From Candidatus Omnitrophota bacterium (GTDB lineage Bacteria > Omnitrophota > Gorgyraeia > Duberdicusellales > 4484-171), in the NCBI GenBank assembly GCA_037146775.1, contig JBAWWL010000003.1, positions 2,334 through 66,333 of the forward strand: a stretch of DNA of 64,000 bases, read 5' to 3'. The notes beneath the pieces were generated by a model. That model was given only the letters and a program-made list of their open reading frames with translations. It was not told where the DNA came from and did not search any database. Both the position numbers and the translations under genes were made by a program. Shown here one piece after another: positions 1 through 50,878 of this stretch. Numbering within the stretch: the first letter of the stretch is position 1; each line of letters begins with the position of its first letter.

Positions 1-70
1 CACGCGGGAACAGATTCCTAAAAAATATTTTTCTTCCTTTTCGTGCGTGCGGCAGAAGCCATAATAATAT

Positions 71-1582
71 ATGAAGACCATTGATATTAAAGAGGAAGGC
101 AGGGTCATCGAGGTAAAACGTTCGATAGCCCGCATCGAAGGATTTCCCCATTGTCTCAACGGCCAGCTTTTAGATTTCGCTTGCGGCCAGCGAGGCATGG
201 TTATGGGGTTTAAGGAAGAAGAAGTTTTTGCACTCATCTTAGGCAGCCGTCAGGACGTTAAACCTGGTGAAAAAGTATATACCAGGGAAGAAACGTTTCG
301 GATTCCTGTCGGATATGGTTTTGTCGGCAGGATCGTGAACAGTTTGGTTGAGCCGCTTGATGGCAAAGGTCCTATTGCCTTAAAGGCTCCATCCACGCCA
401 AAAAAAGATACTGTCGAGGAGGGTACGGCTAAACGCCCCGCTTCTTTTTCCGACCTGTATCCCGTATTTAGAGAAGCGCCGTCGGTATTGCAGCGCGAAC
501 CAATTACCAAGACGCTCGAAACAGGTTTACGAAGCATTGACGCTATGATCCCCATTGGCAAGGGGCAGCGTGAGCTTATCATCGGTGACCGCATGACCGG
601 GAAAACCAGTATAGCCTTGGATACTGTCTTAAATCAGAAAGATAAAAAAGTGCTTTGTATCTATTGTTTTATAGGCAAAGACTACAATACACTTAAGAAG
701 GTGGTCCAGGCGTTATCCAGCGCGCAGGCTTTTACCTATACCGTTGTGGTCGCTGCGTTTGCTTCCTCGTCTCCGGGAGAACAATACTTAGCGCCCTATG
801 CTGCGTGTACGTTGGGCGAGTTTTTTATGGAGCATGGCGAAGATGTTTTTGTGGTTTTTGATGATTTAACCAAACATGCCTGGGCTTACCGTCAGCTTTC
901 TTTGCTTTTAGAACGTTCTCCGGGCCGTGATGCCTACCCCGGAGATATTTTTTATCTCCACTCACAATTAGTGGAGCGTGCCAGCAAATTGAATAGTGAG
1001 CATGGCGGCGGTTCAATGACATTTTTCCCCATCGTCGATACCATACAGGGAGATATTACCGGCTATGTTCCTTCCAATTTGATTTCCATGACCGATGGCC
1101 AGATCTATCTCAACACTACTCTTTTTGCCGAGGGTTTTAAACCGGCGATAGACCTGGGCCTTTCGGTTTCGCGTATAGGCAGTAAGGTGCAGTCAAAGGC
1201 GATGAAAGAGTTGAGCGCTATGCTGCGGCTGGAATATCTTCAGTACAAAGAATTGCTAAAAATGTCGAAACTAAAAGCAGGACTTTCGCCCGAAGTAGAA
1301 AAAAAACTCCGTAGAGGAGAAGCCATTACACAGATTTTGATACAAGAAAAGAATAAGCCATCGCCGCACGAAGAACAGTTGCTTATGTTGTATGCTTTGC
1401 GTAAAGGTTTCCTGGATGGCTTGTCTCATGAAGAGATAGGCAAATTTAAAAAAGAAATTTATGCTTTTGCGCACGAACATGGCGAAGTCTTTATGCGGGA
1501 AATAGCCAGCAAGCGGGAATTGACAGAAACAATCAAAGAAGGGTTAGAGGCTATTCTTAAGAAATATTTCGGCAAAAAATAA
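71..1582 (+). CDS. atpA: F1-type ATPase alpha subunit, paralog 1
   Basis: 503 aa. Alpha-type motifs are present: P-loop GDRMTGKTS, then CIYCFIGK...VVVAAFASSSPGEQYLAPYAA and FDDLTKHAWAYRQLSLLLERSPGRDAYPGDIFYLHS, which closely parallel the E. coli alpha core. About 20 extra residues follow the DGKGPI motif. Confidence 0.85.
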   Translation: MKTIDIKEEGRVIEVKRSIARIEGFPHCLNGQLLDFACGQRGMVMGFKEEEVFALILGSRQDVKPGEKVYTREETFRIPVGYGFVGRIVNSLVEPLDGKGPIALKAPSTPKKDTVEEGTAKRPASFSDLYPVFREAPSVLQREPITKTLETGLRSIDAMIPIGKGQRELIIGDRMTGKTSIALDTVLNQKDKKVLCIYCFIGKDYNTLKKVVQALSSAQAFTYTVVVAAFASSSPGEQYLAPYAACTLGEFFMEHGEDVFVVFDDLTKHAWAYRQLSLLLERSPGRDAYPGDIFYLHSQLVERASKLNSEHGGGSMTFFPIVDTIQGDITGYVPSNLISMTDGQIYLNTTLFAEGFKPAIDLGLSVSRIGSKVQSKAMKELSAMLRLEYLQYKELLKMSKLKAGLSPEVEKKLRRGEAITQILIQEKNKPSPHEEQLLMLYALRKGFLDGLSHEEIGKFKKEIYAFAHEHGEVFMREIASKRELTETIKEGLEAILKKYFGKK

Positions 1583-1641
1583 GTTCTCGCAGAATATCTT
1601 GAAACAAAGTTTTACACAATATCGCAGGTAGTAACCTTGTT

Positions 1642-3225
1642 TTGGGCCAAAGAGCAAACAATCTTATGCAAACTCAATCATATCCTTTCCGGATTAAAGA
1701 ATTGGGCCGCGTTAAAGAAGTAAGAAAATTTATCGTTAAAATCGAAGGATTCCCTTCGTGTATGAACGGCCAGCTGGTTTCTTTTCCCGGAGGGACCAAG
1801 GGGTTGGTGATGGGTTTTAACGAGCGCGAGGCGCTGGCTATCATTTTAGGTTACGAAGGCAGCGTGCGCATCGGCGATATTGTCGAAGCACAAAGCCAGG
1901 CATTTACAGTGCCGGTTAACGATAGTTTACCGGGTAGAATTATCACCGCGCTGGGAAAGCCTTGCGACGAGAAAGGCCCGATCGCGGTAAGTGGATTTTT
2001 ACGTTTGGCAGCGAACGCCGACAGTCTCACCGCGCACACGTCTTATTGCCCTGTGTTCACCGAAGCGCCCTCGGCCATGGAAAGATCGGATGTCCACGAG
2101 CAACTGGAGACAGGCGTAAAGATGGTCGATATGTTTGTTCCGCTCGCCAAGGGCCAGCGCATACTTATTTTTGGTGACAGGATGTCGGGCAAGACCTCTC
2201 TGGCTACGGACGCTATTATTAACCAAAAGGATAAAGATGTGGTGTGTGTGTATTGTTCGATTGGAAAAAGCTATTTTTCTCTTTTACGGGTCGTCCAGTT
2301 ACTGAAGAAGCATCGCGCTTTGGATTACACGGTTGTCGTTGCCGCAGGAGCTGCCTCGTCGTGCGGTGAACAGTATCTGGCGCCATATACAGCCACCGCG
2401 GTAGCCGAATACTTTATGAACAAAGGCAAAGATGTGTTGCTGGTAATGGATGATTTAACCAAACATGCCTGGGCTTACCGCCAGCTTTCTTTACTTTTAG
2501 AAAGGCCGCCGGGCAGAGAAGCTTGCCCCGGAGATATTTATTATATTCACGCACAACTGCTCGAGCGTTCAGGTAAATTAATAGATGAAAAAGGAGGGGG
2601 CAGTATTACGTCGCTTGTACTCGCAGACACATTGCAGGGTGATATAAGTAGCTATATTCCTTCAAACTTTGTCTCCATGCTCGACGGTCAGATATATTTA
2701 AGTACCACCTTGTTCGGCGACGGCTTTAAACCGGCGATTGATTTTGGTTTATCCATTTCGATTATGGGCGGAAAGATCCAGCATCCGGCAATAAAAGAAT
2801 TTACACAGCGCATACGTATAGAATATGCTCAGTACCGGGAATTGCTTAGGCTGATGAAGTTAAAGTCGACGCTTTCCTCCGAGGCGGAGGCAAAGATAAA
2901 ACGCGGAGAAACCATCACCGAGCTTCTTAAACAGCAGCGTTCTAGCCCGGTGTCGCAAGCGGAGCAGATAATTTTGCTGTATGCTTTGGAAAAAGGTATG
3001 CTGGATAAGCTTTCGAGCCAACAGCTCAAAACATTCAAAAATGATTTTTTTAGCTTTGTACAAAAAGAAGAACCGGAGATAGTGCGCTTGTTGGAAGAAC
3101 GGCAGCCGCTGGATAACAAAAGTGCCGCCTTGATCGAAAAAGTTCTGCAGGATTTCTTTGTGCAAATAGCGGTCAGCTTTAAGATCCAACCGCAGCCTGC
3201 GCAAGCCATCCCTGTCGGAGTATAA
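1642..3225 (+). CDS. F1-type ATPase alpha subunit, paralog 2
   Basis: 527 aa. A second alpha-type protein: P-loop GDRMSGKTS, MDDLTKHAWAYRQLSLLLERPPGREACPGDIYYIHAQLLERS. I estimate 45-50% identity to paralog 1 by eye. It starts 60 bp downstream of paralog 1. Confidence 0.8.
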   Translation: MGQRANNLMQTQSYPFRIKELGRVKEVRKFIVKIEGFPSCMNGQLVSFPGGTKGLVMGFNEREALAIILGYEGSVRIGDIVEAQSQAFTVPVNDSLPGRIITALGKPCDEKGPIAVSGFLRLAANADSLTAHTSYCPVFTEAPSAMERSDVHEQLETGVKMVDMFVPLAKGQRILIFGDRMSGKTSLATDAIINQKDKDVVCVYCSIGKSYFSLLRVVQLLKKHRALDYTVVVAAGAASSCGEQYLAPYTATAVAEYFMNKGKDVLLVMDDLTKHAWAYRQLSLLLERPPGREACPGDIYYIHAQLLERSGKLIDEKGGGSITSLVLADTLQGDISSYIPSNFVSMLDGQIYLSTTLFGDGFKPAIDFGLSISIMGGKIQHPAIKEFTQRIRIEYAQYRELLRLMKLKSTLSSEAEAKIKRGETITELLKQQRSSPVSQAEQIILLYALEKGMLDKLSSQQLKTFKNDFFSFVQKEEPEIVRLLEERQPLDNKSAALIEKVLQDFFVQIAVSFKIQPQPAQAIPVGV

Positions 3226-3258
3226 GATGTTCGTAATCGCGTAATGTAAGGAGAAATA

Positions 3259-4116
3259 GTGGCAACGCTATCGTCGCTTAAAAAGGAATATGATTTTAAT
3301 GTGGAGCTGGCATCTGTGATAGACGTTATGAAGGGTATTGCTGCCTCACAATTTCAGTCGTTACAGCGGCGCAGGGAGCGATTTAAGAAATTTCTTGATT
3401 CCTTTTCCAGCTTTTTTCAGCTCATCGATTTTAGCGCAGTCGCACACCCCTTCGGCCGCTTAGCGACAGAACGTGTGGGTATTATCATGGTGACTTCCGA
3501 CGAGGGTTTTATGGGCGGATTGAATACCCACGTTATCAATGCAGCTCTCGCCCATCGGAGGACCGAAGCCGAATTGATTATTGTCGGCGACCGCGGTGCG
3601 GCATATTTAAAAGGTTTAGGTGAACAGTTTACATATTTCCCCGGCGTTACCGACGAGAATAAATACGAGTTAGCCATAAAATTACGAGATTATATTATGC
3701 AACAAAGCAAACGCGCTAAATTTGGCATGGTTCTTTTGTCGTATCCTTTGCCGGTGTCTTTTACCTTTCAGAAGGTGGAAGTGATTAAGCTCCTGCCTTG
3801 TACGGAATTATTCGAAAAAAAAGAAGATTTGACCTCAGGCGGTGAAAAAGTTATTGTCGAGTCGCATCTCGAAGATATTATTGAGCATTTGGTGGCTGAA
3901 TGGATATCTGAAAAATTGTACGAAGTCTTTGAGGATTCAAAACTTTCTGAATTCGCCGCCCGGGCAATCAATCTTGAACAGAGCTATCAAAACGTTTCGC
4001 AGTCACGGAAAATAGCCCGGTACCGTTTTTTTCAGGCAAAACATACCGCCATAGACAGAAGTATGCGTGAAACGTTTGCCTCGCAACTTTTGCGTAAAAA
4101 AGATGCGGTTACATAA
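3259..4116 (+). CDS. atpG: F1-type ATPase gamma subunit-like protein
   Basis: 285 aa. GTG start, with an AAGGAG RBS 6 nt upstream. The N-terminal pattern ([33 protein letters not shown]) fits the gamma N-helix; both the length and the position between alpha and beta fit gamma. Confidence 0.65.
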
Positions 4117-4157
4117 TATGCACAGTACACAGGGCTGCGACAACAAGAGATAATCAT

Positions 4158-5549
4158 ATGGCAGATAATACTATTAAAAAAACAGGCAGGGTGGTTGCGG
4201 TTCAGGGGCCGGTAGTCGACGTTAAATTCGAAAAAGCGGAAGAAATTCCCGGCATATATCAAGTTATTATTACCAAAACATTTGACGGTAAGGAGCTTCT
4301 TTTGGAAGTAACCGAGCATCTCGAGGGAAACATCGCCCGCTGCGTCGCCTTGGCCTCAACGCTTAATTTGCAGCGAAACCAGCCGGCGGTTGCGCAGGGT
4401 AGTCCTATTAGTATTCCGGTGGGCAAAAGTTTATTTTCAAGAATTATCAACGTTGTCGGCGAGCCTATTGATTCGCAGGGCCCTATTGTTACCAGCGAAA
4501 GAATGCCCATACGAAAAGATATGACTTCATTTTATCTTAACCCGGACAGGCACAGCCTGGAAAAGCTCGAAATTTTAGAAACCGGCATAAAAATTATGGA
4601 TTTATTGTTTCCAATGGTCAAGGGAAGCAAGTCGGGAATACTTGGCGGCGCGGCTTTAGGCAAAAGTATTCTCACTTTGGAATTGATACATAATGTTACG
4701 CAAAAGAGCAAGGGCGTCTGTGTATTTACCGGAGCCGGCGAGCGTATCCGAGAAGGCAACGAATTATATAATGAGTTCAAGAAACAAGGTTTACTGGACA
4801 GAGTTATTATGGCATTTGGCCAGATGAATGAACCTCCGGGCGCGCGGTATGAAATTGTTTTAACCGGAGTGACCGTGGCTGAATATCTGCAAAGCCAGAA
4901 TCAGGACGTTCTCTTTTTTGTGGATAATGTTTACCGATTTGTACAGGCAGGAGCTGAGATTTCCACGCTCTTAGGCAGGGTACCCTCCGAGATGGGGTAT
5001 CAGCCAACTCTGGCCTCGGAAGTCGGTGAATTCCAGGAACGGATTCGTTCAAGAGAATCAGGTTCGATCACTGCCGTAGAGGCGATCTATGTTCCGGCTG
5101 ATGACTTAACCGATCCGGCAGTCGTCACTATATTTAGTTACTTGGATGCGGTGTTAGTGCTTTCGCGAGAACGAATACAGCTGGGGTTATATCCGGCCAT
5201 TGACCCGCTCTTGTCAAGCTGTTCCAATCTCGATCCTGAGATTGTAGGGGAAAGGCATTTCATTATAGCTCAGGAAGTAGTCAAAATTTTAACCAAATAT
5301 GAGGAGTTGAAGAAAATAGTGGCGGTTATCGGCGTGGATGAACTTTCCAAAGTCGATCGCATTCTTTATGAGCGGGCCAGAAAGCTGCAGAATTTTCTTA
5401 CCCAGCCGTTTTTTACGGCGGAAGTCTATACCGGTAAGAAAGGAGAATATGTAACTATAAAAGAAACCCTAGACGGCTGCGAGAAAATTATTTCCGGAAG
5501 AGCCGACACTATTAAGGAAGAAGATTTGTATTTGATAGGAAAACTTTAA
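4158..5549 (+). CDS. atpD: F1-type ATPase beta subunit
   Basis: 463 aa. [16 protein letters not shown]...[23 protein letters not shown]...[43 protein letters not shown]...[10 protein letters not shown]...DELSKVD parallels the E. coli beta catalytic core. The P-loop is the variant GGAALGKS. Confidence 0.88.
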
Positions 5550-5612
5550 GGGTAAGTAGTATCAAAAGTTTGGCGTACGGTAAGCGCATATAGAATGTAA
5601 CCAAGGAGACGT

Positions 5613-7298
5613 GTGGCAATACGGCTTGGAGAGATACTGGTAGATGAAAAAATTATTACGCAGGAACAGCTTGATGAAGCTTTAAAAGAACACGAGCGTA
5701 CCGGAGACTTCTTGGGGCAAATCTTGATCCGGCGAGGTTTTATCGGCGAGGGCCAGCTGGCAAGAACACTTTCGCAGCAGATGGGTGTGCCGTATCTTAA
5801 CCTGAAAGAAGTGCCGATAGATGAGGCTCTTACGCGCCGCGTCCCCGCCAAGCTTGTGTGGCATTACAAAATTATGCCGATCAAGCTCGACGGCAATGTC
5901 TTAACGGTTGCCATTTCCAACCCTTTTGATATGTGGCCGCTTGATGATATTGAAGTGAATCTGGGTTTCCGGGTTGAACGGGTACTTTCTACTCCCAGCG
6001 ACATAACGCAGGCGATAAAAAAATATTATGGCGTCGGAGCCGAAACGATCGAAAGCATTCTAGAGCAACAACCGACCGTGGTGCACGAGACGAGCCTTAA
6101 AGAAAGAACCGAGGATATCGAAAAAAGAGCCGAAGATGTTTCGGTGATTACGCTGGTAAATCAAATTTTGCATCAGGCGATCAAAGAGGGGGCGACCGAC
6201 ATCCATATCGAGCCGTCCAAAAACGAGTTGTCATTGCGTAATCGCGTTGATGGTATCCTGTACGATACCGCCGTTTCCGAAGATATACGCTATCTATACC
6301 CTTCGATTGTTTCACGCATCAAAATTATGGCTGGTCTTGATATCGTTGAGAAAAGGCTTCCCCAGGACGGCCGCGCGCGCGTAAAATTGGGCAACGAGGA
6401 ATTCGATTTACGCGTATCGGTACTACCGTCTGTGTATGGCGAAAATGTGGTTATCAGGATTTTGCCTACCACCATGCTTTTCAGCCTGGAGAAGCTCGGG
6501 CTTTTGCACGAAGACCTAAAGAAATTAAAAGAGCTTATTAGCAAACCTCACGGGATAATCTTTTTAACCGGCCCTACGGGAAGCGGAAAAACCACAACGT
6601 TATATGCGGCATTGAGCACCTTAAATACTTCCGAAACAAAGATTATTACTATCGAAGACCCGGTGGAATATGAGTTGCGTAGAATTCACCAGATACAGGT
6701 GAGCACAAAAATAGATTTAACTTTTGCAAGGGCCCTGCGCAGTATGTTGCGGCATGACCCCGATATTATGATGGTGGGAGAAGTAAGGGATTTCGAGACT
6801 GCCGAGATTGCAATCCAGGCAGCTTTAACCGGCCACCTCGTATTTTCAACTCTTCATACAAACGACGCTTCCAGCGGAGCAACACGTTTACTTGATATGG
6901 GCGTTGAGCCATATCTGGTAGCTTCCAGCGTCGAGGCTTTTATCGCCCAGCGTTTGGTGCGAGTGATTTGCTCTCACTGTAAGGAGAGTTATCAGCTTGC
7001 GCCGGAACTGCGCGCTTTTATGGAACCGAAATCAAGCGAGATATGTATGGTATACCGAGGCAAGGGGTGCGAGATGTGCCGGCATACCGGTTACAAAGGA
7101 AGGACCGCAATCTATGAGATATTGACCGCAAGTACGCCGATACGCCAGCTCATTATGACAAAAGCATCAAGCGACGAAATAAAGCAAAAAGCAATATCCT
7201 TAGGTATGCGAACCTTGAAAGATGACGGTTGGGAAAAGGTAAAGAAGGGTATTACTACTCTCGAAGAAGTGATGCGAGTAACTAAGATTACCGAATAA
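5613..7298 (+). CDS. pilB: Type IV pilus / type II secretion assembly ATPase (GspE/PilB family)
   Basis: 561 aa. GTG start with an AAGGAG RBS. N-terminal GspE_N-like domain, Walker A GPTGSGKTTTLYAAL, tetracysteine CSHC...CEMC zinc motif. Confidence 0.88.
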   Translation: MAIRLGEILVDEKIITQEQLDEALKEHERTGDFLGQILIRRGFIGEGQLARTLSQQMGVPYLNLKEVPIDEALTRRVPAKLVWHYKIMPIKLDGNVLTVAISNPFDMWPLDDIEVNLGFRVERVLSTPSDITQAIKKYYGVGAETIESILEQQPTVVHETSLKERTEDIEKRAEDVSVITLVNQILHQAIKEGATDIHIEPSKNELSLRNRVDGILYDTAVSEDIRYLYPSIVSRIKIMAGLDIVEKRLPQDGRARVKLGNEEFDLRVSVLPSVYGENVVIRILPTTMLFSLEKLGLLHEDLKKLKELISKPHGIIFLTGPTGSGKTTTLYAALSTLNTSETKIITIEDPVEYELRRIHQIQVSTKIDLTFARALRSMLRHDPDIMMVGEVRDFETAEIAIQAALTGHLVFSTLHTNDASSGATRLLDMGVEPYLVASSVEAFIAQRLVRVICSHCKESYQLAPELRAFMEPKSSEICMVYRGKGCEMCRHTGYKGRTAIYEILTASTPIRQLIMTKASSDEIKQKAISLGMRTLKDDGWEKVKKGITTLEEVMRVTKITE

Positions 7299-7314
7299 AA
7301 ATTAAACCATAACC

Positions 7315-8526
7315 ATGGCACTCTATTATTATCGCGCAAAAAAAGGGCCTAAAGAAATCGTGGAAGGTGAGTTGGCTGCCGAGAACAAAGATGCGGCAGT
7401 CGTAAAATTGTCTTCGCAGGGGCTCATCCCGGTTCATCTCGAAGAAAAGGTTTCAGGGTATGAGCCAAAAATAACGGCGGTAAAATCAGGCAAGGTTACC
7501 TTGAAAGAGGTAAATATCTTTGCGCGCCAGTTAGCCAGTTTGCTTAAGTCAGGAAACACTCTTTTACGGTCATTAGACATACTTTCCCGTCAGGCTCATA
7601 ACGCATACTTCCAGTGGGCAGTCGGTCAGATGGCGAGGCAAGTGAAAGAGGGTAGTACTTTTTCTCAAGCCCTCTCCGGTTTTGGGCGTATTTTTCCAGC
7701 CTTGTATGTCAATATGGTAAGATCGGGAGAGGAGGCGGGTACGTTGGATGAGGTTTTGCGGCGGTTAGCCGAATATGGAGAAAAAACTGAAGAAATGCGT
7801 TCAAAAATCAAAGCCGCCCTTGCCTACCCTTCTCTGCTTATTATATTAGGTATGGGAACCGTATTCGTGCTTTTAACTTTTTTTATGCCTCGTCTGGTAA
7901 ATTTATTTCAGGATTTAGGCCAAACATTGCCGCTTCCTACCAGGATACTCATAGCTCTCAGTTCATTTCTGCAAGTATACTGGCCATGGCTGATTGTTGT
8001 TGTGGCAGGTATTGTCGTGTTTGCGCGAAAACGAGGTTTGCGCGCACAAGAGCGCGTGACCATCGATTGGTTGAAACTAAAGATCCCGGTTATGGCAGAC
8101 CTGATACGTAAAGAAAATATATCCAGTTTTACCAGATCGCTTTCTTTGCTGCTTAAGGGAGGATTGCCTATATTTCGGGCAATCGAGATCATTACGCCAA
8201 CCTTAACGAATACCAAATACCGTCAAATGTTTGAGAAGGCAGGTAATAGGATCGTACAAGGGGTATCTTTGGCTAAAAGTATGGAAGAGCAAGGTGGATT
8301 TGAACCTTTTGAAATAAATATGGTTGCGGTAGGCGAAGAAAGCGGCCGGCTGGATGAGTCGCTTCTTGAGATTGCCAAAAGCTACGAGGCCGACATGGAA
8401 GGGACACTACGCGTCGCGACGTCATTACTTGAACCGCTTATTATTATCGGTGTTGGCTGTATCGTTGGCTTTATCGTGTTTGCGATGCTTTTGCCGATAT
8501 TCCAGATGGACATTACTGCCATGTAA
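7315..8526 (+). CDS. pilC: Type IV pilus / T2SS inner-membrane platform protein (GspF/PilC family)
   Basis: 403 aa. Duplicated GspF-type domains with transmembrane segments. Lies directly after pilB. Confidence 0.82.
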   Translation: MALYYYRAKKGPKEIVEGELAAENKDAAVVKLSSQGLIPVHLEEKVSGYEPKITAVKSGKVTLKEVNIFARQLASLLKSGNTLLRSLDILSRQAHNAYFQWAVGQMARQVKEGSTFSQALSGFGRIFPALYVNMVRSGEEAGTLDEVLRRLAEYGEKTEEMRSKIKAALAYPSLLIILGMGTVFVLLTFFMPRLVNLFQDLGQTLPLPTRILIALSSFLQVYWPWLIVVVAGIVVFARKRGLRAQERVTIDWLKLKIPVMADLIRKENISSFTRSLSLLLKGGLPIFRAIEIITPTLTNTKYRQMFEKAGNRIVQGVSLAKSMEEQGGFEPFEINMVAVGEESGRLDESLLEIAKSYEADMEGTLRVATSLLEPLIIIGVGCIVGFIVFAMLLPIFQMDITAM

Positions 8527-8707
8527 TTTTCGTTTACTAAATTATATGTAGTGTTGATGTGTGCCGTAGCATGTCGTAAGCGATCAATACTTTTGCTGGC
8601 CGCAAGACGAGCCGGAAAAAATAAAAACACTTCCATTTTCGTCCCCGTGTTAAAGTTCGGCCAATATGAAGTGTATCCATTAAAGACGATTAAAGAGGGG
8701 TAAGCCG

Positions 8708-9160
8708 ATGCTGTGGTCCGTAAAAGAGAAAACGAGCTATCGCCTGCGCTGCAATCAGCACATTCGGCACAAACGAACATTTACTCTTGTCGAGGCGCTC
8801 TTAAGTGTTGCAATAGTCGCTGCGGGTCTTATAGGTATCATGCAGGCCTTGATGAAAGAGGTAAGCGCGTTGAGTAATATCGAGGAAAGAATTGAAAGCG
8901 CGCGTATTCTGCAGGAGAAATTCGGAGAGGTTACGAAAGAACTTTTAAAAGCAACGCAGATCGCTCCTGTTTCCCGAGAAAATGAAATAGTGTGCGGCCC
9001 GCGCCGTTACAAAATGCAACTGTATGTGGATCAGAAGAGTCCGATAAAGTATTTGTATGAAATACAACTTGTCTGTAGTTGGCAAAAATTCGCTCGAGAG
9101 CAGAAAAATACACTGGTAACATTTTTGTATAAACCAATCCAGAGCAAGAATGAACAATAG
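8708..9160 (+). CDS. Prepilin-type N-terminal domain protein (minor pseudopilin); the annotated start is probably too far upstream
   Basis: Contains a KRTFTLVEALLSVAIVAAGL class-III signal-like hydrophobic segment. The leader is unusually long (about 33 aa) and has Thr rather than Gly at position -1. Confidence 0.5.
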   Translation: MLWSVKEKTSYRLRCNQHIRHKRTFTLVEALLSVAIVAAGLIGIMQALMKEVSALSNIEERIESARILQEKFGEVTKELLKATQIAPVSRENEIVCGPRRYKMQLYVDQKSPIKYLYEIQLVCSWQKFAREQKNTLVTFLYKPIQSKNEQ

Positions 9161-9716
9161 TCGCGATTGTCGAATAAATGTGGCAAAGAACGCTTGCGGC
9201 TTTACCCTTGTTGAGGTATTGCTTGCGATAGCTATTTTTGGAATTATTTCCGGTGCTATTTTTGCAGTATTTACCCGCAGTATTGCGGTCTGGGAAACCG
9301 CCCGTATTAAGGCAAACCACAAAGAAAAAGCGCTGTTTTTCTTGATGTCTTTTGAAAAGGAACTGAAGAACCACATTGATACAGGTAATGTTCAGTTTAT
9401 TGTCGAGGAAAATAAAATATATTTTACCACGCTCAAAGACACGATCTATAACGTACTGTATGTGTTTGACAAAGCGTCCGGGCAGTTTTACCGTTATAGG
9501 TCGGTTTATCCTATCCCGCCGGCCTCAGTAAAGCCGGTTGTGGTTTTAAAAAATGTTGTCTCTTGCGGGTTTAGCTGCGAATATCCTCTTTTGGCGCCGG
9601 GTCAAGACGCACAAAAAAATTCTAGCCTACCTTGCATGGTAACAGTAAAATTTTCGGTAGATGATGTTAAAACAAAAAATAATTATGCACTATCCCGGGT
9701 TATTTCTATTCCCTAA
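9150..9716 (+). CDS. Prepilin-type minor pseudopilin (GspJ/PilW-like)
   Basis: Canonical G|FTLVEVLLAIAIFGIISGAIF prepilin cleavage/methylation motif near the N-terminus. Confidence 0.7.
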   Translation: MNNSRDCRINVAKNACGFTLVEVLLAIAIFGIISGAIFAVFTRSIAVWETARIKANHKEKALFFLMSFEKELKNHIDTGNVQFIVEENKIYFTTLKDTIYNVLYVFDKASGQFYRYRSVYPIPPASVKPVVVLKNVVSCGFSCEYPLLAPGQDAQKNSSLPCMVTVKFSVDDVKTKNNYALSRVISIP

Positions 9717-10704
9717 GGTTCACCGCCGCAGCAGCATCCTTATTATATCGCTATGGTTGATTTTCCTTCTGGCATTCTTTACTGTGGTCATAGCCGGCAT
9801 TATCAGGCAGAAGCTGATTGTCGCAAACCGTATCGATAAAGGGTTTAAGGCGTATGCGGCAGCTCTTGCCGCTATCGAAGCAGCGAAAGCGGTCGTCGGG
9901 CAGAGTGACGAAGGAAACCGTCTCACCAATCTTTATCGTTGGTATAATGATGAACGTATATTTAAAGATAAACATCTCGGCGAAGCTTTTTATAACGTAG
10001 CCTACACCACAGACACAGGCGCATCAGCCACAAAGACTGTCTATGGGTTGATAGATGAAGAACGCAAAATTAACCTTAATAAAGCGCCGCAAGAAGTGCT
10101 TTTTAGATTATTCAGCCAAGAGGGTATTGTGGAGGCAAAGCAAATTGCCGCTTGCGTAATAGACTGGCGGGATAAAGATTCGCAAATTACCGATGCAGGC
10201 GCAGAGAATACGTATTATAATAGTCTCAAGGATCCTTATAGTGCGCGCAACGCAGATCTGAAGTCTATCTATGAACTGTTGTTGGTAAACGGTATGACTA
10301 AGAAAGACTTCGACGTGATAAAAGAATATGTGACGGTATATGGCGGCGGCGCGGTTAATGTGAATACTGCCTCGAAGGAAGTGTTGGCTGCCTTGGGGTT
10401 TGGGCCTTCGCTTATAGCCAAGATAATAGAATACAGGAACGGTCCTGACGGCGAGCTATTTACGGCGGATGATCGGATGTTTGAAAATGCTTCGAGCATT
10501 CCTGCCGTGCTACAGGCTTTTACGAAATTGTCTCCGGATGAAGAAAGCCAATTGCAGGATGCGTTGAAAAGTAATACACTGGGGATAGAAGCAGCATATT
10601 TCGAAGTAAAAGCTTTTGGTTCAACCACGGGTAAACAAGAAACCGCGTACGTTGATTGTATTATATCGAAAACCGGGAAGGTTTTATTTTGGCACGAGCA
10701 ATAA
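9661..10704 (+). CDS. GspK-like minor pseudopilin with helix-hairpin-helix repeats
   Basis: 347 aa. N-terminal transmembrane helix; two HhH-like segments (NLNKAPQEVLFRLF..., VNVNTASKEVLAALGFGPSLIAKIIEYR) typical of GspK. The true start is likely the internal Met near 9685. Confidence 0.6.
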   Translation: MMLKQKIIMHYPGLFLFPKVHRRSSILIISLWLIFLLAFFTVVIAGIIRQKLIVANRIDKGFKAYAAALAAIEAAKAVVGQSDEGNRLTNLYRWYNDERIFKDKHLGEAFYNVAYTTDTGASATKTVYGLIDEERKINLNKAPQEVLFRLFSQEGIVEAKQIAACVIDWRDKDSQITDAGAENTYYNSLKDPYSARNADLKSIYELLLVNGMTKKDFDVIKEYVTVYGGGAVNVNTASKEVLAALGFGPSLIAKIIEYRNGPDGELFTADDRMFENASSIPAVLQAFTKLSPDEESQLQDALKSNTLGIEAAYFEVKAFGSTTGKQETAYVDCIISKTGKVLFWHEQ

Positions 10705-10722: not shown

Positions 10723-12177
10723 ATGAAAAAAATAACCTCATTTTTATCCAAACCAAAAAGAGTTGCGCTTGAGCTTGGCACGAGCTGGGTTAAGATTGCG
10801 CAAGCACAGCTTTTAGATCAACAGTATAAGATTGTGGGCTTAAGCGTAAAACGAATGCTTGATATTAAGACCACCCTGGCCCCTGCCATGAAGCAATGGT
10901 TTAGGGAAATGGATATTACCGGTAACGAAGTTACTCTAATTATTCCCCGACATTTTGTTACCATAAAAAATCTGGAGTTGCCCTCGACGGATACGCGCGA
11001 GATTAAGGAAATCATCGATTTACAGATTTCAAAACAAACACCTTATTCCCGCGACGAAATAGTATTTGGTTTTAAGGTTTTACAGGGGAACACCGAAGGT
11101 TATTCGAACGTCTTGCTTGCGATTGTCAAAAAAAATATCATCGAAGAACGCCTCAAGCTTTTAAGAGAATTGCAGCTGGAAGCGGGCTGTATTCGTATCA
11201 GCTCAGAAATGGCATACCAATATTTTTTGCTGTTTAGCCGTGCCAAGCATCTCAAGGAATCAACGGCGTTGATTATCGATATTGACGAAGAGTCTAGCGA
11301 AGTATTCGTACTTAGCGCGGGCGAGCCGGTTTTTTCCCGTAATATTTTTATTGGCAGAGAATTTATCTTAAAGAATCCAGACGACTGGGAACGTAAATTT
11401 TCCGAAGAGATTAAGAGGCTGTTCGAGCTTTATCATCACGAAGGCCACCGCGCTGCGGTTGAACGCGTATTAATTACCGGCGCCACGGATGGGCTGGCGG
11501 ATGTGTTGACGTTTGTTCGCCTTTCGCTTAATTTACCTGTTGAAAAAATAGACATACTAGACATACCTATATGTATGCCCGAAGAAGCCTCTTCTATCAA
11601 AGTAATGTCTCGTTCGGTTTCTCTTTCTTCCGTTATCGGCGCCTTATGCTCACAAGAAAAAGCTCATATCAATCTTCTTCCGAGGGAAATCGAAATAGAA
11701 CGGCAGGTAAAATATAAAGCAAAATATCTTACTATTACAGGTATTTTTAGTGTCGCGGTCCTTATTTTACTTTCGGCTTTGTTGCTTGAGAAATTCTACA
11801 CAAAGAAACATTATTATGAACTGTTACACGCTAAATTTATCAAGTCAGAAACCGAAGCCGGCGATATTGAGTCCATTAAAGTAAAGGCAAATACCATCCG
11901 TAAATATCTCGATAAGAAGAATTCCGTAGTCAACATTTTGCAGGAATTGTTTAAAATTACGCCGGACCAGATTTATTTTCGCGACATTCATTATGTCAAG
12001 AATAAAGAAGTGATTTTGACCGGTTCTTCGGAGGCAATGTCCGACGTATTCAAATTCGTTACCATACTGGAGGCTCTTGAGTGTTTTGAGAATATTAAAA
12101 CAAATTATGCGACCAAGAAGCAAAAAAATGGTAAAGACGTGGTTGATTTCGAACTGATTTGTCCTTTGAAGGAATAA
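10723..12177 (+). CDS. PilM-PilN fusion protein (type IV pilus alignment subcomplex)
   Basis: 484 aa. Actin-like PilM region (about residues 1-310), followed by the conserved INLLP motif, a single transmembrane helix (ITGIFSVAVLILLSALLL) and a periplasmic PilN-like tail. Confidence 0.65.
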   Translation: MKKITSFLSKPKRVALELGTSWVKIAQAQLLDQQYKIVGLSVKRMLDIKTTLAPAMKQWFREMDITGNEVTLIIPRHFVTIKNLELPSTDTREIKEIIDLQISKQTPYSRDEIVFGFKVLQGNTEGYSNVLLAIVKKNIIEERLKLLRELQLEAGCIRISSEMAYQYFLLFSRAKHLKESTALIIDIDEESSEVFVLSAGEPVFSRNIFIGREFILKNPDDWERKFSEEIKRLFELYHHEGHRAAVERVLITGATDGLADVLTFVRLSLNLPVEKIDILDIPICMPEEASSIKVMSRSVSLSSVIGALCSQEKAHINLLPREIEIERQVKYKAKYLTITGIFSVAVLILLSALLLEKFYTKKHYYELLHAKFIKSETEAGDIESIKVKANTIRKYLDKKNSVVNILQELFKITPDQIYFRDIHYVKNKEVILTGSSEAMSDVFKFVTILEALECFENIKTNYATKKQKNGKDVVDFELICPLKE

Positions 12178-12714
12178 ATGATGGTTAAGTTAAAAATAAC
12201 AAAAAAAGAGCGCCTTATAGCCTACGTCGCGGTTTTTATGGTTGTTGCCGCTATCGGAGACAGACTTTTTTACCAGCCAATCAGAGACAAATTCAGCGGC
12301 ATGAGCAAAAAAATTTTTGTCGAAGAAAAAAAAGTTGGTGTAAACCTACGTAACTTGGCACAAAAAGACGCTATTCTTGAAGAATATAAAAAACTTTCTA
12401 AATACGTGTCTCCGATAGGAACTGACGAGGAAGAAATCTCCCGCTTCTTAAGTATTATCGAAGAAACAGCGCGTAACTCAAATATCTATATGAGCGGCAT
12501 GAAGCCGCAGCCAACCGCAAAAGTAGATTTTTATAAGCGTTACGTTGTGGAGTTGGAGGTGGAAGCGCCGACCGAGCGATTGATAGACTTTCTGTATAGA
12601 CTGGAGTCTTCAAATCAGCTTATTAACATAGAAGAGATACAGCTAAGCACCAAAAACGAAAGTACAAAAACGCTCAAAGCCCGTATGCTGGTTGCCAGAA
12701 TTCTTATCCCCTAA
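12178..12714 (+). CDS. PilO/GspM-like bitopic membrane protein
   Basis: 178 aa. N-terminal transmembrane helix (LIAYVAVFMVVAAIG). Sits immediately after pilMN. Assignment is by context and topology. Confidence 0.4.
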   Translation: MMVKLKITKKERLIAYVAVFMVVAAIGDRLFYQPIRDKFSGMSKKIFVEEKKVGVNLRNLAQKDAILEEYKKLSKYVSPIGTDEEEISRFLSIIEETARNSNIYMSGMKPQPTAKVDFYKRYVVELEVEAPTERLIDFLYRLESSNQLINIEEIQLSTKNESTKTLKARMLVARILIP

Positions 12715-15088: not shown

Positions 15089-15703
15089 ATGATTTTTACA
15101 TTTATGAAATATGCAATACGATGTATGTTTTGTGTTACGGTGCTCTCGTTGTTTTTATGTGCGGATATGGTTTTGGCAGAAGATTTTTCCGCCGATATAG
15201 TGTATACCGGCACCTTAGGTACGCGGCCGGGGAAAATATATGTTGCAAAAAACAAAGCACGCATGGACACACCCGAAAGCAGCATAATTACCCGTGCCGA
15301 CACTAAGACCACCATCATACTGTTGCCGGGAGTAAAGACATATATGGAGCAACCTTTTGACCCGAGCAACCTCTTGGGGGTAGGCTCCCCAAGCGCCGGT
15401 ATGATTGAAAAGAGGTTTGAGGGCCAAGAAACCATAGACGGAAAGTCAACCGACAAGTATGTGCTTATGTATGAAATGCTGGGCAGGCAACAAGTGCTTT
15501 TTCAGTGGGTTAAGCCAGGCAGTGAAGTTCCGGTGCGTACCGCTTCCGAGGATGGCAGCTGGACGATCGACTATAAAAATGTTGTTCGGGGCCAGGTAGA
15601 TTCTAATCTTTTTGAAATCCCGGCCGGATATAAAAAGTTTGCCTTGCAAGGCACTATTATGGACACCTTGGCTAAGGCAATATCATCGACGGAAGAACGC
15701 TAA
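15089..15703 (+). CDS. Secreted hypothetical protein (LolA-like/DUF-type)
   Basis: 204 aa with an N-terminal signal peptide. Confidence 0.35.
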   Translation: MIFTFMKYAIRCMFCVTVLSLFLCADMVLAEDFSADIVYTGTLGTRPGKIYVAKNKARMDTPESSIITRADTKTTIILLPGVKTYMEQPFDPSNLLGVGSPSAGMIEKRFEGQETIDGKSTDKYVLMYEMLGRQQVLFQWVKPGSEVPVRTASEDGSWTIDYKNVVRGQVDSNLFEIPAGYKKFALQGTIMDTLAKAISSTEER

Positions 15704-15906
15704 AATTTCTTGCAGTATATAACATATCTTATATCGCGCCAATAAGCACAATTAATTTTTGCCGTACATTACCGCGAATAAGTTCAAAGTAAAGGCCCCG
15801 TTTTGGCCAAGATAGTTGTAAATTTTTTTGTTGTGTCTTTGGCTGCGGATGACGCCATGGTGCTTTCTTTCTTATGCTTTCGATGGTGATGCAATCATTA
15901 AAATAC

Positions 15907-25394: not shown

Positions 25395-26402
25395 ATGCCG
25401 CAATTACGCAAAGATCCTATATTAGGAAGATGGGTTATTATTTCGACCGAACGGGCGAAGCGTCCTAAGGATTTTCCTCGTGCAGAATCCGCCCCTGCGG
25501 AAAAAGAATGCCCTTTTTGCAAAGGAAAAGAAAACTTAACTCCCGCAGAAGTTTTTTCCATAAGAGACCCGCAAGGGAATTGGCGGGTACGCGTAATACC
25601 CAGTAAAAAACCCTTTGTAAGATCGGATGTCGAGTTTTGGAAAAAAGGTAAAGGTCCCTATGATTCAATTAACGGCGTGGGCAGCCACGAGGTGGTCATC
25701 GAAACCCCCGACCATATTAATAACATGGCGGATTTGGACGAAAACCTTATAAAAGATGTATTTAACGCCTATTGCAATCGTTTTAGAGAATTGGGTAAAG
25801 ACGGGCGCATTAAATACGTGCTTGCGTTTAAAAATTACGGTTGGGATGCCGGCGGCGGCAGAGTGCGGCATTCACGCTCGCAGCTTATCGCGACACCGGT
25901 CAATCTTAAAAGGGTAAAAGAAGAGCTTGAAGGCTCCAAGGCTTACTATCATTACCACGAGCGGTGCGTTTTTTGCGATATTATCAGGCAAGAACTGCAG
26001 ACAGGGGAACGGGTAGTATTGGATCAGGACGGTTTTATCGTTCTCGTTCCGTTTGCTCCGCGTTTTCCTTTTGAGGTGTGGATACTTCCCAAAGACCATT
26101 CTCCGGATTTTTATAATGTTTGCGAAAAAAATGTCGAAGGGTTAGCCAGGGTGGTACAGAAAACATTGCGTAAGATAAAGGTGTTACTTAACGACCCGGC
26201 GTATAATTACGTCATTCACACCGCTCCGTTTCGCAGGCCATACCCGGGTTATTGGTCAACCATAGAAGAGGACTATCATTGGCATATTGAAATTACGCCT
26301 CGCCTGACCAGAGTCGCGGGGTTTGAATGGGGAAGCGGTTTCTATATCTGCCCATCATTACCGGAAGAATCGGCAAAGTTTTTACGTGAAACCAACGTAT
26401 AA
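25395..26402 (+). CDS. GalT-like (HIT superfamily) nucleotidyltransferase paralog 1, with Arg at the nucleophilic His position
   Basis: 335 aa. N-terminal DPILGRWVII, zinc CxxC (CPFC), C-terminal HWHIEITPRLTRVAGFEWGSGFY. The active-site region reads RHSRSQ instead of HxHxQ. Confidence 0.7.
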   Translation: MPQLRKDPILGRWVIISTERAKRPKDFPRAESAPAEKECPFCKGKENLTPAEVFSIRDPQGNWRVRVIPSKKPFVRSDVEFWKKGKGPYDSINGVGSHEVVIETPDHINNMADLDENLIKDVFNAYCNRFRELGKDGRIKYVLAFKNYGWDAGGGRVRHSRSQLIATPVNLKRVKEELEGSKAYYHYHERCVFCDIIRQELQTGERVVLDQDGFIVLVPFAPRFPFEVWILPKDHSPDFYNVCEKNVEGLARVVQKTLRKIKVLLNDPAYNYVIHTAPFRRPYPGYWSTIEEDYHWHIEITPRLTRVAGFEWGSGFYICPSLPEESAKFLRETNV

Positions 26403-26560: not shown

Positions 26561-27562
26561 ATGCCTGACATCAGAAAAGATCCTATTGTTGCGCGCTGGG
26601 TAGTTGTTAACGTGGAAGAGCCATATCTTCCCAAAGACTATGCGGTTGCGCCGCCGGTATGGAAGGGAGAAAAAGATTGCGCTTTTTGCTATGGCAATGA
26701 ACATCTTACTCCTCCGGAAATCGAGGCGATATCGGAAACCTGGCGCGCTCCCAATACGCCGGGATGGAAAGTAAGAGTGGTGCCGAATAAATTTCCGGCA
26801 CTGCGCATTGAGGGAGACTTAGATAAGCATGCCCTAGGCATATATGATATGTCTAATGGTGTAGGGGCGCACGAAGTAATTATAGACAGTCCGCATCACT
26901 ATAAAGGTATTCCGGAATTCACCGATACCGAAACGGAATACATGCTTAAAGCATATCGCAGCCGTACGCTTGATTTACGAAAAGACAGGCGATTTAAATA
27001 TCTGCTCATTTTTAAAAATGTTGGGGTTGAGGCAGGAGCTTCCCTTGAACACGGACATTCACAGTTGATCGCTCTTCCCATGGTGCCCAAAAATGTTTCT
27101 GACGAAGTCAGGGGCGCACAGCATTTTTATGAATACAGAGAACGTTGTATATTTTGCGATATGATCGCGTATGAACAGGAGGACGGTAAGGAAAGAATTG
27201 TTACCGAGAACGAACATTTTGTGGCGTTTTGTCCTCTTTCCGGCAGGTTCTCGTTTGAAACGTGGATTGTTCCCAAGGAACACTCGATGGATTTTGGGTC
27301 GATCGACGACAACCATATTAGAACGCTTGCTAAAATTCTTAGAGACACCTTGGGAAGGCTTAAAAAGGTTTTGGGAGACCACCCCTATAACTATATTATC
27401 CATACCTCTCCCATTAACACCGACGCACACTTTTCATACCATTGGCATATTGAAATTATGCCTAAATTAAGCCGTGTGGCCGGTTTTGAATGGGGAAGCG
27501 GTTTTTATGTCGTGTCTACTCCGCCCGAAGTGGCTGCAAAATCTTTGAAAGAAGCAGTGTAG
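26561..27562 (+). CDS. GalT-like (HIT superfamily) hexose-1-phosphate nucleotidyltransferase/phosphorylase paralog 2
   Basis: 333 aa. DPIVARWVVV, CAFC zinc site, intact EHGHSQ (HxHxQ) active site, YHWHIEIMPKLSRVAGFEWGSGFY. Confidence 0.75.
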   Translation: MPDIRKDPIVARWVVVNVEEPYLPKDYAVAPPVWKGEKDCAFCYGNEHLTPPEIEAISETWRAPNTPGWKVRVVPNKFPALRIEGDLDKHALGIYDMSNGVGAHEVIIDSPHHYKGIPEFTDTETEYMLKAYRSRTLDLRKDRRFKYLLIFKNVGVEAGASLEHGHSQLIALPMVPKNVSDEVRGAQHFYEYRERCIFCDMIAYEQEDGKERIVTENEHFVAFCPLSGRFSFETWIVPKEHSMDFGSIDDNHIRTLAKILRDTLGRLKKVLGDHPYNYIIHTSPINTDAHFSYHWHIEIMPKLSRVAGFEWGSGFYVVSTPPEVAAKSLKEAV

Positions 27563-37202: not shown

Positions 37203-38474
37203 ATGGATGAGAGCATTGATATGGGGGCGTTAAAAGAGATGAAAATCTCGGAGTTGAATAAGATCGCCAAGGGGCTGGATATTAACGGCCTAAGCGGTTT
37301 TAAGAAACAGGATCTTATTTTTAAGATTCTGCAGGCTAAAGCGGAGAAGGAAGGGCTGATGTTCGGTAACGGCGTCTTGGAAGTTCTTTCTGAAGGTTTT
37401 GGCTTTTTGCGCGCGCAAAACTACAACTATTTGCCCTCACCCGACGATATTTATGTATCGCCGTCGCAAATCAGGAAATTTACGCTTAAAACAGGTGATA
37501 CGGTGAGCGGTCAAATCCGTCCACCCAAAGATAATGAAAAATATTTCGCTCTTCTTAAGGTTGAGGCGGTCAACTTTGAAGATCCCGAGCAGTCTCGCGA
37601 CCGGGTACTTTTTGACAACCTTACTCCCGTGTACCCCAAGGAGAGATTTATCTTAGAGACTGTTTCTAACGAATTGTCTATGCGCGTCCTTGACCTGCTT
37701 TGTCCCATAGGTAAGGGCCAGCGTGGTTTGATTGTCGCTCCTCCCTATAGCGGAAAAACAGTGTTGTTGCAGAAAGTGGCCAACGCCATCATGAACAATT
37801 ATCCCGAAGTAATTCTTATTGTACTGCTTATTGACGAGCGTCCGGAAGAAGTTACGGAAATGAAGACCATGGTTAAGGGCGAAGTGATCAGTTCAACGTT
37901 CGATGAACCTGCCCAGCGCCACGTACAGGTTGCGGAAATGACTATCGAAAAAGCGAAACGCCTGATCGAACACAAAAAAGACGTGGTAATACTTTTGGAT
38001 AGTATTACGCGTTTAGCCCGCGCCTATAACCTGGTTGAGCCGCATTCTGGCAGGATTCTTTCCGGTGGTATCGATTCCAGCGCCCTGCATAAGCCTAAAA
38101 GGTTTTTCGGCGCAGCAAGAGCATTGGAGGAAGGCGGATCCCTGACTATTATCGCCACTTCGCTCATCGATACCGGCTCGCGAATGGATGATGTTATTTT
38201 CGAGGAATTTAAAGGTACCGGCAATATGGAAATAACACTTGACAGAAATATCTTTCAGAGGAGAATTTATCCTTCGATTGACATTAAGCGTTCCAATACG
38301 AGGCGAGAAGAGCTCCTTATCCATCCCGACGAACTGCAGAGGATATGGATGTTGCGTAAAGCGCTGAACGAGCTTAGTTCCGTGGAGGCGTTGGAGCTGC
38401 TTATCGAGAAGCTTGGTAAAACAAAGAATAATGTTGAGTTTTTAGTGACATTAAGCAAAAGCAGCATGGCTTAA
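37203..38474 (+). CDS. rho: Transcription termination factor Rho
   Basis: 423 aa. N-terminal Rho_N/cold-shock domain ([14 protein letters not shown]), RecA-like ATPase with Walker [10 protein letters not shown]- and R-loops. Confidence 0.92.
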
Positions 38475-50372: not shown

Positions 50373-50541
50373 AGAATAGAGAAAAAGGAATAATTTATAA
50401 GGCGTTTCGGCTAGATCATCTATGTACCAGAAAAAAACAAGGAAATTGCATAATTAAGTTTTTTCACTTTAAGGCATCTTGGATGCATATTCCCGATGCC
50501 GATAAAAAATAAAGAATAACCCTAAGTAATTGCTTTTTTAT

Positions 50542-50616
50542 CGGGGCGTGGCTCAGTCCGGCTAGAGCACTTGGTTCGGGACCAAGGAGTCGGAGGTTCA
50601 AATCCTCTCGCCCCGA
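50542..50616 (+). tRNA. tRNA-Pro (anticodon CGG)
   Basis: I folded it by hand. 7-bp acceptor stem CGGGGCG/CGCCCCG with a C1:G72 pair and A73 discriminator (typical of bacterial tRNA-Pro). D-stem GCTC/GAGC. Anticodon stem CTTGG/CCAAG with loop TTCGGGA. T-stem GGAGG/CCTCT with loop TTCAAAT. No encoded CCA. Confidence 0.85.
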
Positions 50617-50878
50617 TTCTTTCTTCTTAATTATCTAATTCTTTAATCCTTTGATTTCTCCACATATCAACCTAATAACCTATCAACATATCACCCCTAC
50701 TACCCCATGCCCCTTTTTCTTAATAATCCCTTATCCTTTAATCCGTTAATTATTTAATTTTTTAATTCGTTAATCCTTTAATCTCTTCGCATGTCAACCT
50801 GTTATCCCATCCCCTAATAATCCATATTTTTCAGCATTTTTTAATTGCAAATAGTAAATTATTCGATAAAATAACTTA
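50617..50878. repeat. Gene-free 260-bp tract downstream of tRNA-Pro made of dispersed short repeats (TTAATCCTTTAAT / TTAATTCGTTAAT / ATCAACATATCA families)
   Basis: Copies of the same words occur at 40845-40878 (gttaattctttaattcgttaattttttaatcg) and 42377-42460. The reverse complement of 50657-50690 matches 42379-42411 at roughly 90%. Confidence 0.6.

Follow-up and report, generated by a model that had tools for sequence, protein, structure and literature searches.

What does an F1-type ATPase with two alpha genes do beside a pilus operon? The question is raised by a 64,000-nt stretch of DNA from a Candidatus Omnitrophota bacterium (assembly GCA_037146775.1, contig JBAWWL010000003.1, positions 2,334 to 66,333; the whole stretch is called the window here), which near its start carries four consecutive + strand genes that were assigned by Pfam and NCBIfam to two alpha-type, one gamma-like and one beta-type F1 subunit. 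The next gene, 63 bp after beta, encodes a PilB/GspE-type ATPase with an MshEN domain, and there is no atpC after beta. Apart from the MshEN domain, this much had been recognised correctly in an earlier sequence-only reading, which described the four genes as an orphan module without delta, epsilon or Fo genes. The module is in fact the F1 part of a divergent, lineage-specific F-type rotary ATPase operon of Candidatus Omnitrophota that lies beside a pilus/secretion cluster. The second gene of the alpha pair encodes a conserved paralogue without the arginine finger. With moderate confidence, we favour a rotary ATPase derived from the F-type and anchored in the membrane, which would use ATP to act as an accessory motor of the pilus/secretion apparatus. 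Database proteins that are 100% identical to those of the locus are named Candidatus Omnitrophota (NCBI), and those of the closest homologues that bear an organism name have the same one.

The missing delta, epsilon and Fo genes are an artefact of the window edge. An exact-protein look-up of alpha-1 retrieved a 43.6-kb contig of assembly GCA_964613555.1 (locus L001), which encodes the same alpha-1 protein, is identical in DNA to the window across the aligned 200 bp and reaches 2.6 kb further upstream. Genes for epsilon, a CheY-like receiver, c and a b-delta fusion all lie inside 2 kb upstream in this contig (Table 1), giving a full operon order of epsilon, CheY-like gene, c, b-delta, alpha-1, alpha-2, gamma and beta, followed by the PilB/PilC/pseudopilin/PilMNO cluster. 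The operon thus includes epsilon, b, c and part of delta, and with epsilon, c and b-delta directly upstream in L001 the orphan description falls. The 70 bp of promoter-like non-coding DNA proposed to precede alpha-1 shrink likewise, as bases 1-21 of the window are the end of the b-delta gene and 49 bp are non-coding; the number of promoter-like and terminator-like matches over window positions 1-9000 is at chance level. The inspection of upstream DNA for atpB, atpE, atpF, atpH and atpC, which had been proposed as a check, gave a divided answer, with c and b-delta directly upstream, epsilon nearby and a (atpB) absent. A database protein 100% identical to c carries the NCBI tag WCI77_02925, and its longest contig is 200,232 bp, as for alpha-2. 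The start of the window is probably a tile boundary and not a contig end.

Rotor parts (gamma, epsilon and c) and stator parts (b-delta, alpha and beta) are encoded, with the exception of a. The domain limits of the b-delta fusion were taken from Pfam and an AlphaFold2 model; iterated b and delta hidden Markov models (HMMs) were dropped because they absorbed the fusion proteins and returned self-fitted coordinates. The model (mean pLDDT, the predicted local distance difference test score, of 85) contains one long helix (residues 2-135), another that is short and an alpha/beta domain (residues 170-246), and the final 65-70 residues superpose on the C-domain of delta/OSCP at 1.3-2.0 Å (E. coli, PS3 and mycobacterial chains; Foldseek). 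As modelled, the fusion keeps the C-terminal domain of delta only, and the N-terminal helical domain of delta is absent. All alphas of this type are without the delta-binding N-terminal helix, and the two of the window start at the beta-barrel. Both halves of the canonical stator joint, the alpha N-terminal helix and the delta N-terminal domain, are thus gone. An insert of 16-22 residues between the barrel and the nucleotide-binding domain is found in the alphas of the window, L002 and L006 (about 20 aa in alpha-1).

Subunit c has its ion-binding carboxylate in this genome, as the Glu in FAESIA at the position of E. coli D61. The Glu is kept in 119 of the 120 closest relatives and is replaced in four more distant sequences, L009 (Ile), L013 (Gln), L017 (Met) and P0250 (Met). 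Within the cluster type c is the best conserved subunit: its median identity is 70%, while beta reaches 65% and alpha 57%. When canonical operons are compared across phyla, c is ~39% identical and alpha ~66%. The 120 best database matches to c (P0150-P0269) are 78-100% identical, a few of them being labelled as Kiritimatiellia or Deltaproteobacteria metagenome-assembled genomes (MAGs), and among two-alpha lineages c is 77-91% identical even where alpha-1 is only 53-55% identical.

The F1 subunits differ in how far they have diverged. Gamma scores 82 bits with TIGR01146 (cut-off 194) and falls below the equivalog threshold, whereas its homology is clear at the level of fold, from Pfam PF00231 (2e-31) and an end-to-end alignment with Bacillus PS3 gamma. 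Beta is above threshold (TIGR01039, 573 bits; cut-off 463) and 47% identical to E. coli beta; it has the Walker A sequence GGAALGKS, keeps the catalytic Glu in GERIREG together with the other key residues, and reads DELSKVD at the DELSEED motif. Both alphas are above the atpA threshold (TIGR00962, 552 bits for alpha-1 and 500 bits for alpha-2; cut-off 484), and the best alpha matches in the PDB are canonical F1 alphas. They share 50% identity with each other, and alpha-1 is 39% identical to E. coli alpha.

In F1 enzymes the arginine finger of alpha completes the catalytic site on the neighbouring beta. At the corresponding position (E. coli alpha-R376, motif GxSVSRVG) alpha-1, with Walker A GDRMTGKT at residue 172, keeps the arginine as R368 (codon CGT, 1172-1174), and alpha-2 has Ile (I366, codon ATT, 2761-2763). 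The reading frame of alpha-2 is intact, and the gene keeps Walker A (GDRMSGKT) plus most alpha invariants and is therefore a maintained gene, not a relic. The beta site facing alpha-2 should be nearly inactive, because it is this site that the arginine finger completes. To our knowledge, characterised F1 enzymes have three identical alpha subunits.

The loss follows the gene order. In all nine lineages with two alphas the first copy has Arg and the second Ile or Thr, and Arg is kept in all nine single-alpha lineages and in all 71 canonical alphas; it is absent in 31 of 116 database homologues of alpha-2 (duplicates removed). A neighbour-joining tree of 207 alphas (100 bootstraps, with few outgroups and without Mycoplasma or Omnitrophota 'respiratory' alphas) sets the Omnitrophota-type sequences apart from all 71 sampled canonical alphas with a bootstrap of 100/100; a position inside the housekeeping clade, which the sequence-only reading had named as part of a refutation, was not obtained against these canonical alphas. 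The 37 Arg-less alphas form one clade (82/100); they come from many samples and reach down to ~45-55% identity with alpha-2 of the window.

Twenty-five related loci (L001-L017 and L089-L096) among the matches listed, which sample the relatives and are no census of them, were annotated with profile HMMs, and together with the window they represent 18 independent lineages. The usual order begins with a giant open reading frame (ORF) of >2000 aa, truncated where the contig stops, then a small protein that has a signal peptide and a C-terminal transmembrane (TM) helix, epsilon, c and b-delta, and continues with alpha, in some cases alpha-2, gamma, beta, PilB, PilC, pseudopilins, PilMN and PilO. 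L012, L016 and L017 have the alternative order alpha, alpha-2, epsilon, c, b-delta, gamma, beta. In L011 epsilon (15595-15834) lies between PilB and PilC, an F-ATPase subunit gene inside the pilus operon. The atp gene set stays together through all of these three or more orders, and of the 13 lineages with downstream sequence, 12 have PilB directly after beta, at a distance of -1 to 113 bp, a synteny that extends over the phylum. In the window itself no terminator-like site was found in the 63-bp gap between beta and pilB, and the start of pilB, like that of gamma, is preceded by AAGGAG. From this gene order the atp genes appear to be co-inherited, and are very probably co-transcribed, with the pilus/secretion machine and the giant surface protein.

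Subunit a is the part that was not recovered. An HMM built from the E. coli protein and 40 a subunits of canonical loci, which gives 200-300 bits on the a subunits detected in canonical loci, was applied unfiltered to the window and to L001-L017, and at a threshold of E <= 1e-3 to the additional loci L089-L096. For subunit a (PF00119) the whole 64-kb window and the 25 related loci (18 lineages) yielded no match with E below 0.3, and no unannotated multi-TM ORF conserved in these loci was found. The unannotated ORFs upstream of epsilon were considered as candidates for a and rejected; they encode proteins with a signal peptide and one C-terminal TM helix, Peptidase_MA_2 proteins, FGE-sulfatase-type proteins and bAvd/IVP proteins, and none is multi-TM and a-like.

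Taken as an accessory motor, the complex would be membrane-anchored, work in the direction of ATP hydrolysis and serve the adjacent apparatus of pilus/secretion and giant surface proteins. It would correspond to the 'symbiotic' F-ATPase of Seymour et al. 2023 and not to the main ATP synthase of the cell. Alpha-1 and alpha-2 would share one ring with beta, in which each beta site facing alpha-2 would be catalytically crippled, making the motor asymmetric. Several points weigh against this reading. Subunit a could sit elsewhere, the visible range being ~10 kb on each side of the related loci and the 64-kb window. The adjacency of PilB shows co-inheritance and probable co-transcription, which is not physical or mechanical coupling. 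The ring shared by alpha-1 and alpha-2 is deduced from the genes, and the deep branching within the clade (the alpha-1, alpha-2 and single-alpha groups) is unresolved in a neighbour-joining tree with limited outgroups. Finally, c is the most conserved subunit (above), and its nearly constant Glu is as expected of an ion-binding rotor that faces a real stator channel.

The last of these points leads to the strongest alternative, a regular F1Fo ATPase or synthase that translocates ions and has its subunit a gene at another place in the genome (a split operon). The position next to pilB would then be a matter of conserved order or co-regulation, for instance to supply membrane potential for secretion, and not of a shared machine. 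The high conservation of c and of its carboxylate in this lineage is what such an enzyme would show, as are the b-like TM anchor, gamma, epsilon and catalytically intact beta, the scores of alpha-1, alpha-2 and beta above the atpA and atpD cut-offs of NCBIfam, and the canonical F1 alphas as best PDB matches. Split atp operons known so far keep a together with c and b. Here a is absent from the clusters of 18 of 18 lineages, though none of the at least three gene orders separates the other subunits, the carboxylate is lost in four c sequences, the stator joint is gone on both sides, and half of the lineages have an alpha without arginine finger. A V/A-type ATPase is also present in many Omnitrophota (preprint 10.64898/2026.06.07.730766). 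On these grounds the split operon is a possible explanation, and clearly a less likely one than the accessory motor.

A bolder form of the accessory motor is rather unlikely. The two-alpha ring would then be an obligate heterohexamer of alpha-1, alpha-2 and beta with one or two sites permanently disabled, and a would be encoded nowhere in the genome. The unusually conserved c-ring, turned or rocked by ATP hydrolysis, would work against a non-canonical membrane partner, and the motor would act mechanically on the pilus/secretion apparatus in place of transporting ions. Candidates for the partner of the c-ring are the pilus platform and the anchor by which the giant surface protein, with its small neighbour, sits in the membrane.

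The sequence-only reading had made two proposals, an atp operon split over the genome and an F1-like motor, soluble or repurposed, with a possible tie to the pilus machinery. The tie to the pilus/secretion genes is well supported by the PilB synteny. A soluble orphan F1-like motor without a membrane sector, after the gliding motor of Mycoplasma mobile, is what the window alone would suggest, with no Fo, delta or epsilon gene visible inside it, and is refuted by the c, epsilon and membrane-anchored b-delta stalk genes upstream (the end of b-delta lying inside the window), by the same gene set in relatives wherever the contig extends far enough, and by scores with the Mycoplasma type 2 and type 3 models of NCBIfam that are far under their cut-offs. 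A reading of alpha-2 as a functionless decaying copy or a product of misassembly, which the loss of a residue essential for catalysis in characterised F1 enzymes might suggest, is highly improbable for a gene with an intact frame, Walker A and most alpha invariants. The 37 Arg-less sequences come from numerous samples and group in a single clade that extends to ~45-55% identity with alpha-2 of the window, and in nine of nine lineages the Arg-less copy always stands second beside an Arg-bearing first alpha.

The idea of a repurposed motor linked to pili is reasonable and already published, because Seymour et al. 2023 (Nat Microbiol, PMC10066038) reported that many Omnitrophota have a "non-respiratory", "symbiotic" F-type ATPase beside type-4a pilus genes, with such loci in every class and the F-ATPase and pilus genes <10 kb apart in 57 of 66 contigs. 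The locus in the window agrees with that description in its host phylum, in an alpha outside the canonical clade (100/100), in pilB 63 bp after beta and in the directly adjoining PilB-led pilus cluster, and giant ORFs are present in relatives too. Type II secretion-like loci adjoin giant genes of Omnitrophota (West-Roberts et al., 10.1101/2023.11.21.568195). The 2023 work differs in resting on alpha and beta phylogeny and co-location. It groups the alpha with Mycoplasma types 2 and 3, whereas the alphas described here score higher with the canonical atpA model than with the Mycoplasma models (the tree of this study contains no Mycoplasma sequence). Those parts of the text and supplements of PMC10066038 that were searched do not speak of a second alpha, of an arginine finger being lost, of a missing a or of a truncated b-delta. 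The Omnitrophota F-ATPase/pilus locus type is thus already known, and within the portion of the literature that was searched the second alpha, the arginine-finger status with its single clade, the alphas without delta-binding helix, the shortened delta part of b-delta, the top rank of c in conservation and the inventory of Fo and stalk subunits were not found.

Surveys by gene family have a bearing on this. Among 176 complete genomes in a 2026 preprint (10.64898/2026.06.07.730766), F-type alpha and beta are present in 125 and a recognisable gamma in only 30, and subunits of V/A-type ATPases occur in 70-99% of the rest of class Gorgyraeia; nothing was found in the supplement of that preprint by way of KEGG Orthology (KO) tables. 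In the accessible part of the KO table in the 2023 supplement, K02111 is listed for two species only, one of them having K02111 and K02112 without K02108-K02110. The missing K02108-K02110 are uninformative because c is missed by KO too. KO-based surveys overlook gamma, c and b-delta in this family.

Comparison with the Mycoplasma F1-like ATPases gives both likenesses and differences. The type 3 'F1-like X0' (Berlureau et al. 2026, PMC12994834) shares with the Omnitrophota cluster, as does the type 2 gliding motor of M. mobile, an F1-derived set of alpha, beta, gamma and epsilon beside a surface or host-interaction system, and the Mycoplasma alpha-like subunit is likewise without the N-terminal helix that binds delta and b. 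However, the Mycoplasma clusters are without c, b and delta and have a 12-TM protein and other novel partners, whereas the Omnitrophota cluster keeps c and b-delta and no multi-TM partner like that of type 3 X0 was found in its loci. A two-alpha arrangement is not described for Mycoplasma. The type 2 gliding models (MMOB1660/MMOB1670) are not matched (NF045863, 408 and 381 against 600; NF045858, 428 against 850), nor are the type 3 models (MSC_0619/MSC_0618; NF045936, 317 and 298 against 520; NF045934, 406 against 570).

The mycobacterial b-delta fusion (PDB 7njn, 7jg5 and 9vkp, chain d) likewise has b and delta in one polypeptide, and its delta C-domain superposes on that of the Omnitrophota protein at 1.3-1.7 Å over 64-69 columns. 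The mycobacterial chain, however, has 380-445 residues and is accompanied by a separate b' and a subunit a, whereas the 247-aa protein described here has one helix and the delta C-domain only. With canonical F1Fo (atpBEFHAGDC) the cluster shares homologous alpha, beta, gamma, epsilon, c and b-like stalk subunits, the catalytic residues of beta and the carboxylate of c. It differs in gene order, in having no a in the locus, an epsilon without C-terminal helices and a second alpha without arginine finger, in the loss of two domains (N-domain of delta, N-terminal helix of alpha) and in running into a pilus operon. The N-ATPase models (atpDCQRBEFAG) are not matched (TIGR03324, 497 against 750; TIGR03305, 512 against 752; TIGR03323, 35 against 282), and the gene order differs as well. 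The FliI/SctN type III export ATPase model is not matched either (TIGR01026, 168-193 bits; cut-off 379.5).

A conserved alpha paralogue without the Arg that still binds nucleotide would amount to a built-in asymmetric F1. Combined with an operon that has no a and runs almost directly into PilB, it offers a concrete, testable case of a rotary ATPase rewired for a role at the cell surface, in hosts that are ultra-small, probably predatory or parasitic bacteria so far not grown alone. The published "symbiotic F-ATPase" proposal is sharpened in that the parts kept, lost and duplicated are now listed.

Table 1. Features of the F-type ATPase operon and the adjoining pilus/secretion cluster, in the window and in the overlapping contig L001.
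Feature	Sequence	Position	Strand	Remarks
Epsilon, 75 aa	L001			Upstream of the CheY-like gene; N-terminal beta-sandwich only, without C-terminal helices
CheY-like receiver, stand-alone, 120 aa	L001	880-1242		~1.4-1.7 kb upstream of window base 1
Subunit c, ~70 aa	L001	1448-1657		Uncalled
b-delta fusion, 247 aa	L001	1823-2566		Pfam PF00430 (ATP-synt_B) and PF00213 (OSCP)
b-delta fusion, 3' end (last six codons, ..HAGTDS, and stop)	Window	1-21	+	Clipped by window edge; DNA as in L001
Spacer between b-delta and alpha-1	Window	22-70		49 bp, non-coding
Alpha-1, 503 aa	Window	71-1582	+	Pfam/NCBIfam
Alpha-2, 519 aa	Window	1666-3225	+	ORF extendable to TTG 1642
Gamma, divergent, 285 aa	Window	3259-4116	+	GTG start behind AAGGAG ribosome-binding site
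Beta, 463 aa	Window	4158-5549	+	Pfam/NCBIfam
PilB/GspE-type hexameric ATPase	Window	5613-7298	+	N-terminal MshEN (c-di-GMP-binding) domain; starts 63 bp past beta
PilC/GspF platform protein	Window	7315-8526	+
Three overlapping minor (pseudo)pilin genes, GspI-, GspJ- and GspK-like	Window	8708-9160, 9150-9716, 9661-10704	+
PilM-PilN fusion	Window	10723-12177	+
PilO/GspM-like protein	Window	12178-12714	+	Last gene of pilus/secretion cluster

The start of alpha-2 at ATG 1666 agrees with the 519 aa called by NCBI, TTG 1642 being an alternative. Several variations were seen among the genes around epsilon in the relatives. The CheY-like receiver between epsilon and c has no counterpart in most of them, where there is no insert at that spot or another one. 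In L089 the region between epsilon and c (3509-7500) holds a bAvd/IVP protein, a protein of the FGE-sulfatase fold, a second bAvd and a reverse transcriptase, a set like that of a diversity-generating retroelement. Genes of the FGE-sulfatase type or the bAvd/23S_rRNA_IVP type are scattered through the atp cluster of several relatives (L001 2-526, L006 5944-7434, L002 105-491, L008 1304-1738, L014 7975-8352 and L092 12481-12855), and in the genome of the window an ORF ending upstream of epsilon is 54% identical to the FGE-sulfatase protein of L006.

A conserved protein without Pfam match is encoded between the giant ORF and epsilon (L008 2-844, L011 7283-8080, L015 1222-2091, L006 4197-5693, L016 509-1801 and L017 7102-8526). 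Behind a signal peptide it has a ~200-aa module in one or two copies, together with a coiled coil and, at the C-terminus, a TM helix, and the TM motif ..TWxIIFIIxxFxGxLAGxFFFTW also ends the giant ORF in L004 and L014. A Peptidase_MA_2 protein recurs either upstream of epsilon or after PilC (L014 6507-7403, L094 7521-8345 and L004 18556-19413). Some relatives have an added PilZ domain or extra stand-alone MshEN genes (L004 15096-17237; L010 5244-8912), and the MshEN and PilZ domains hint at possible control of the locus by cyclic di-GMP (c-di-GMP). The loci L008, L009, L016 and L017 sit in MAGs labelled Nitrospiraceae, Planctomycetota and Victivallales, which mis-binning, mislabelling or transfer outside the phylum could explain.

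Family scans of the ORFs of the window covered up to ~38.5 kb. Beyond the pilus cluster, which ends with the ORF at 12178, the ORFs up to 36498 and Rho at 37203 are all housekeeping genes by Pfam. The long gene-like ORFs of the window are all on the + strand, and the GC skew is positive in each 2-kb bin over 64 kb. A single Rfam match, a tRNA-Pro (50541-50617), was obtained in the window. Just upstream of gap-pgk-tpi lies a pair of paralogues of the GalT/HIT family (galactose-1-phosphate uridylyltransferase-like), at 25395-26402 and 26561-27562.

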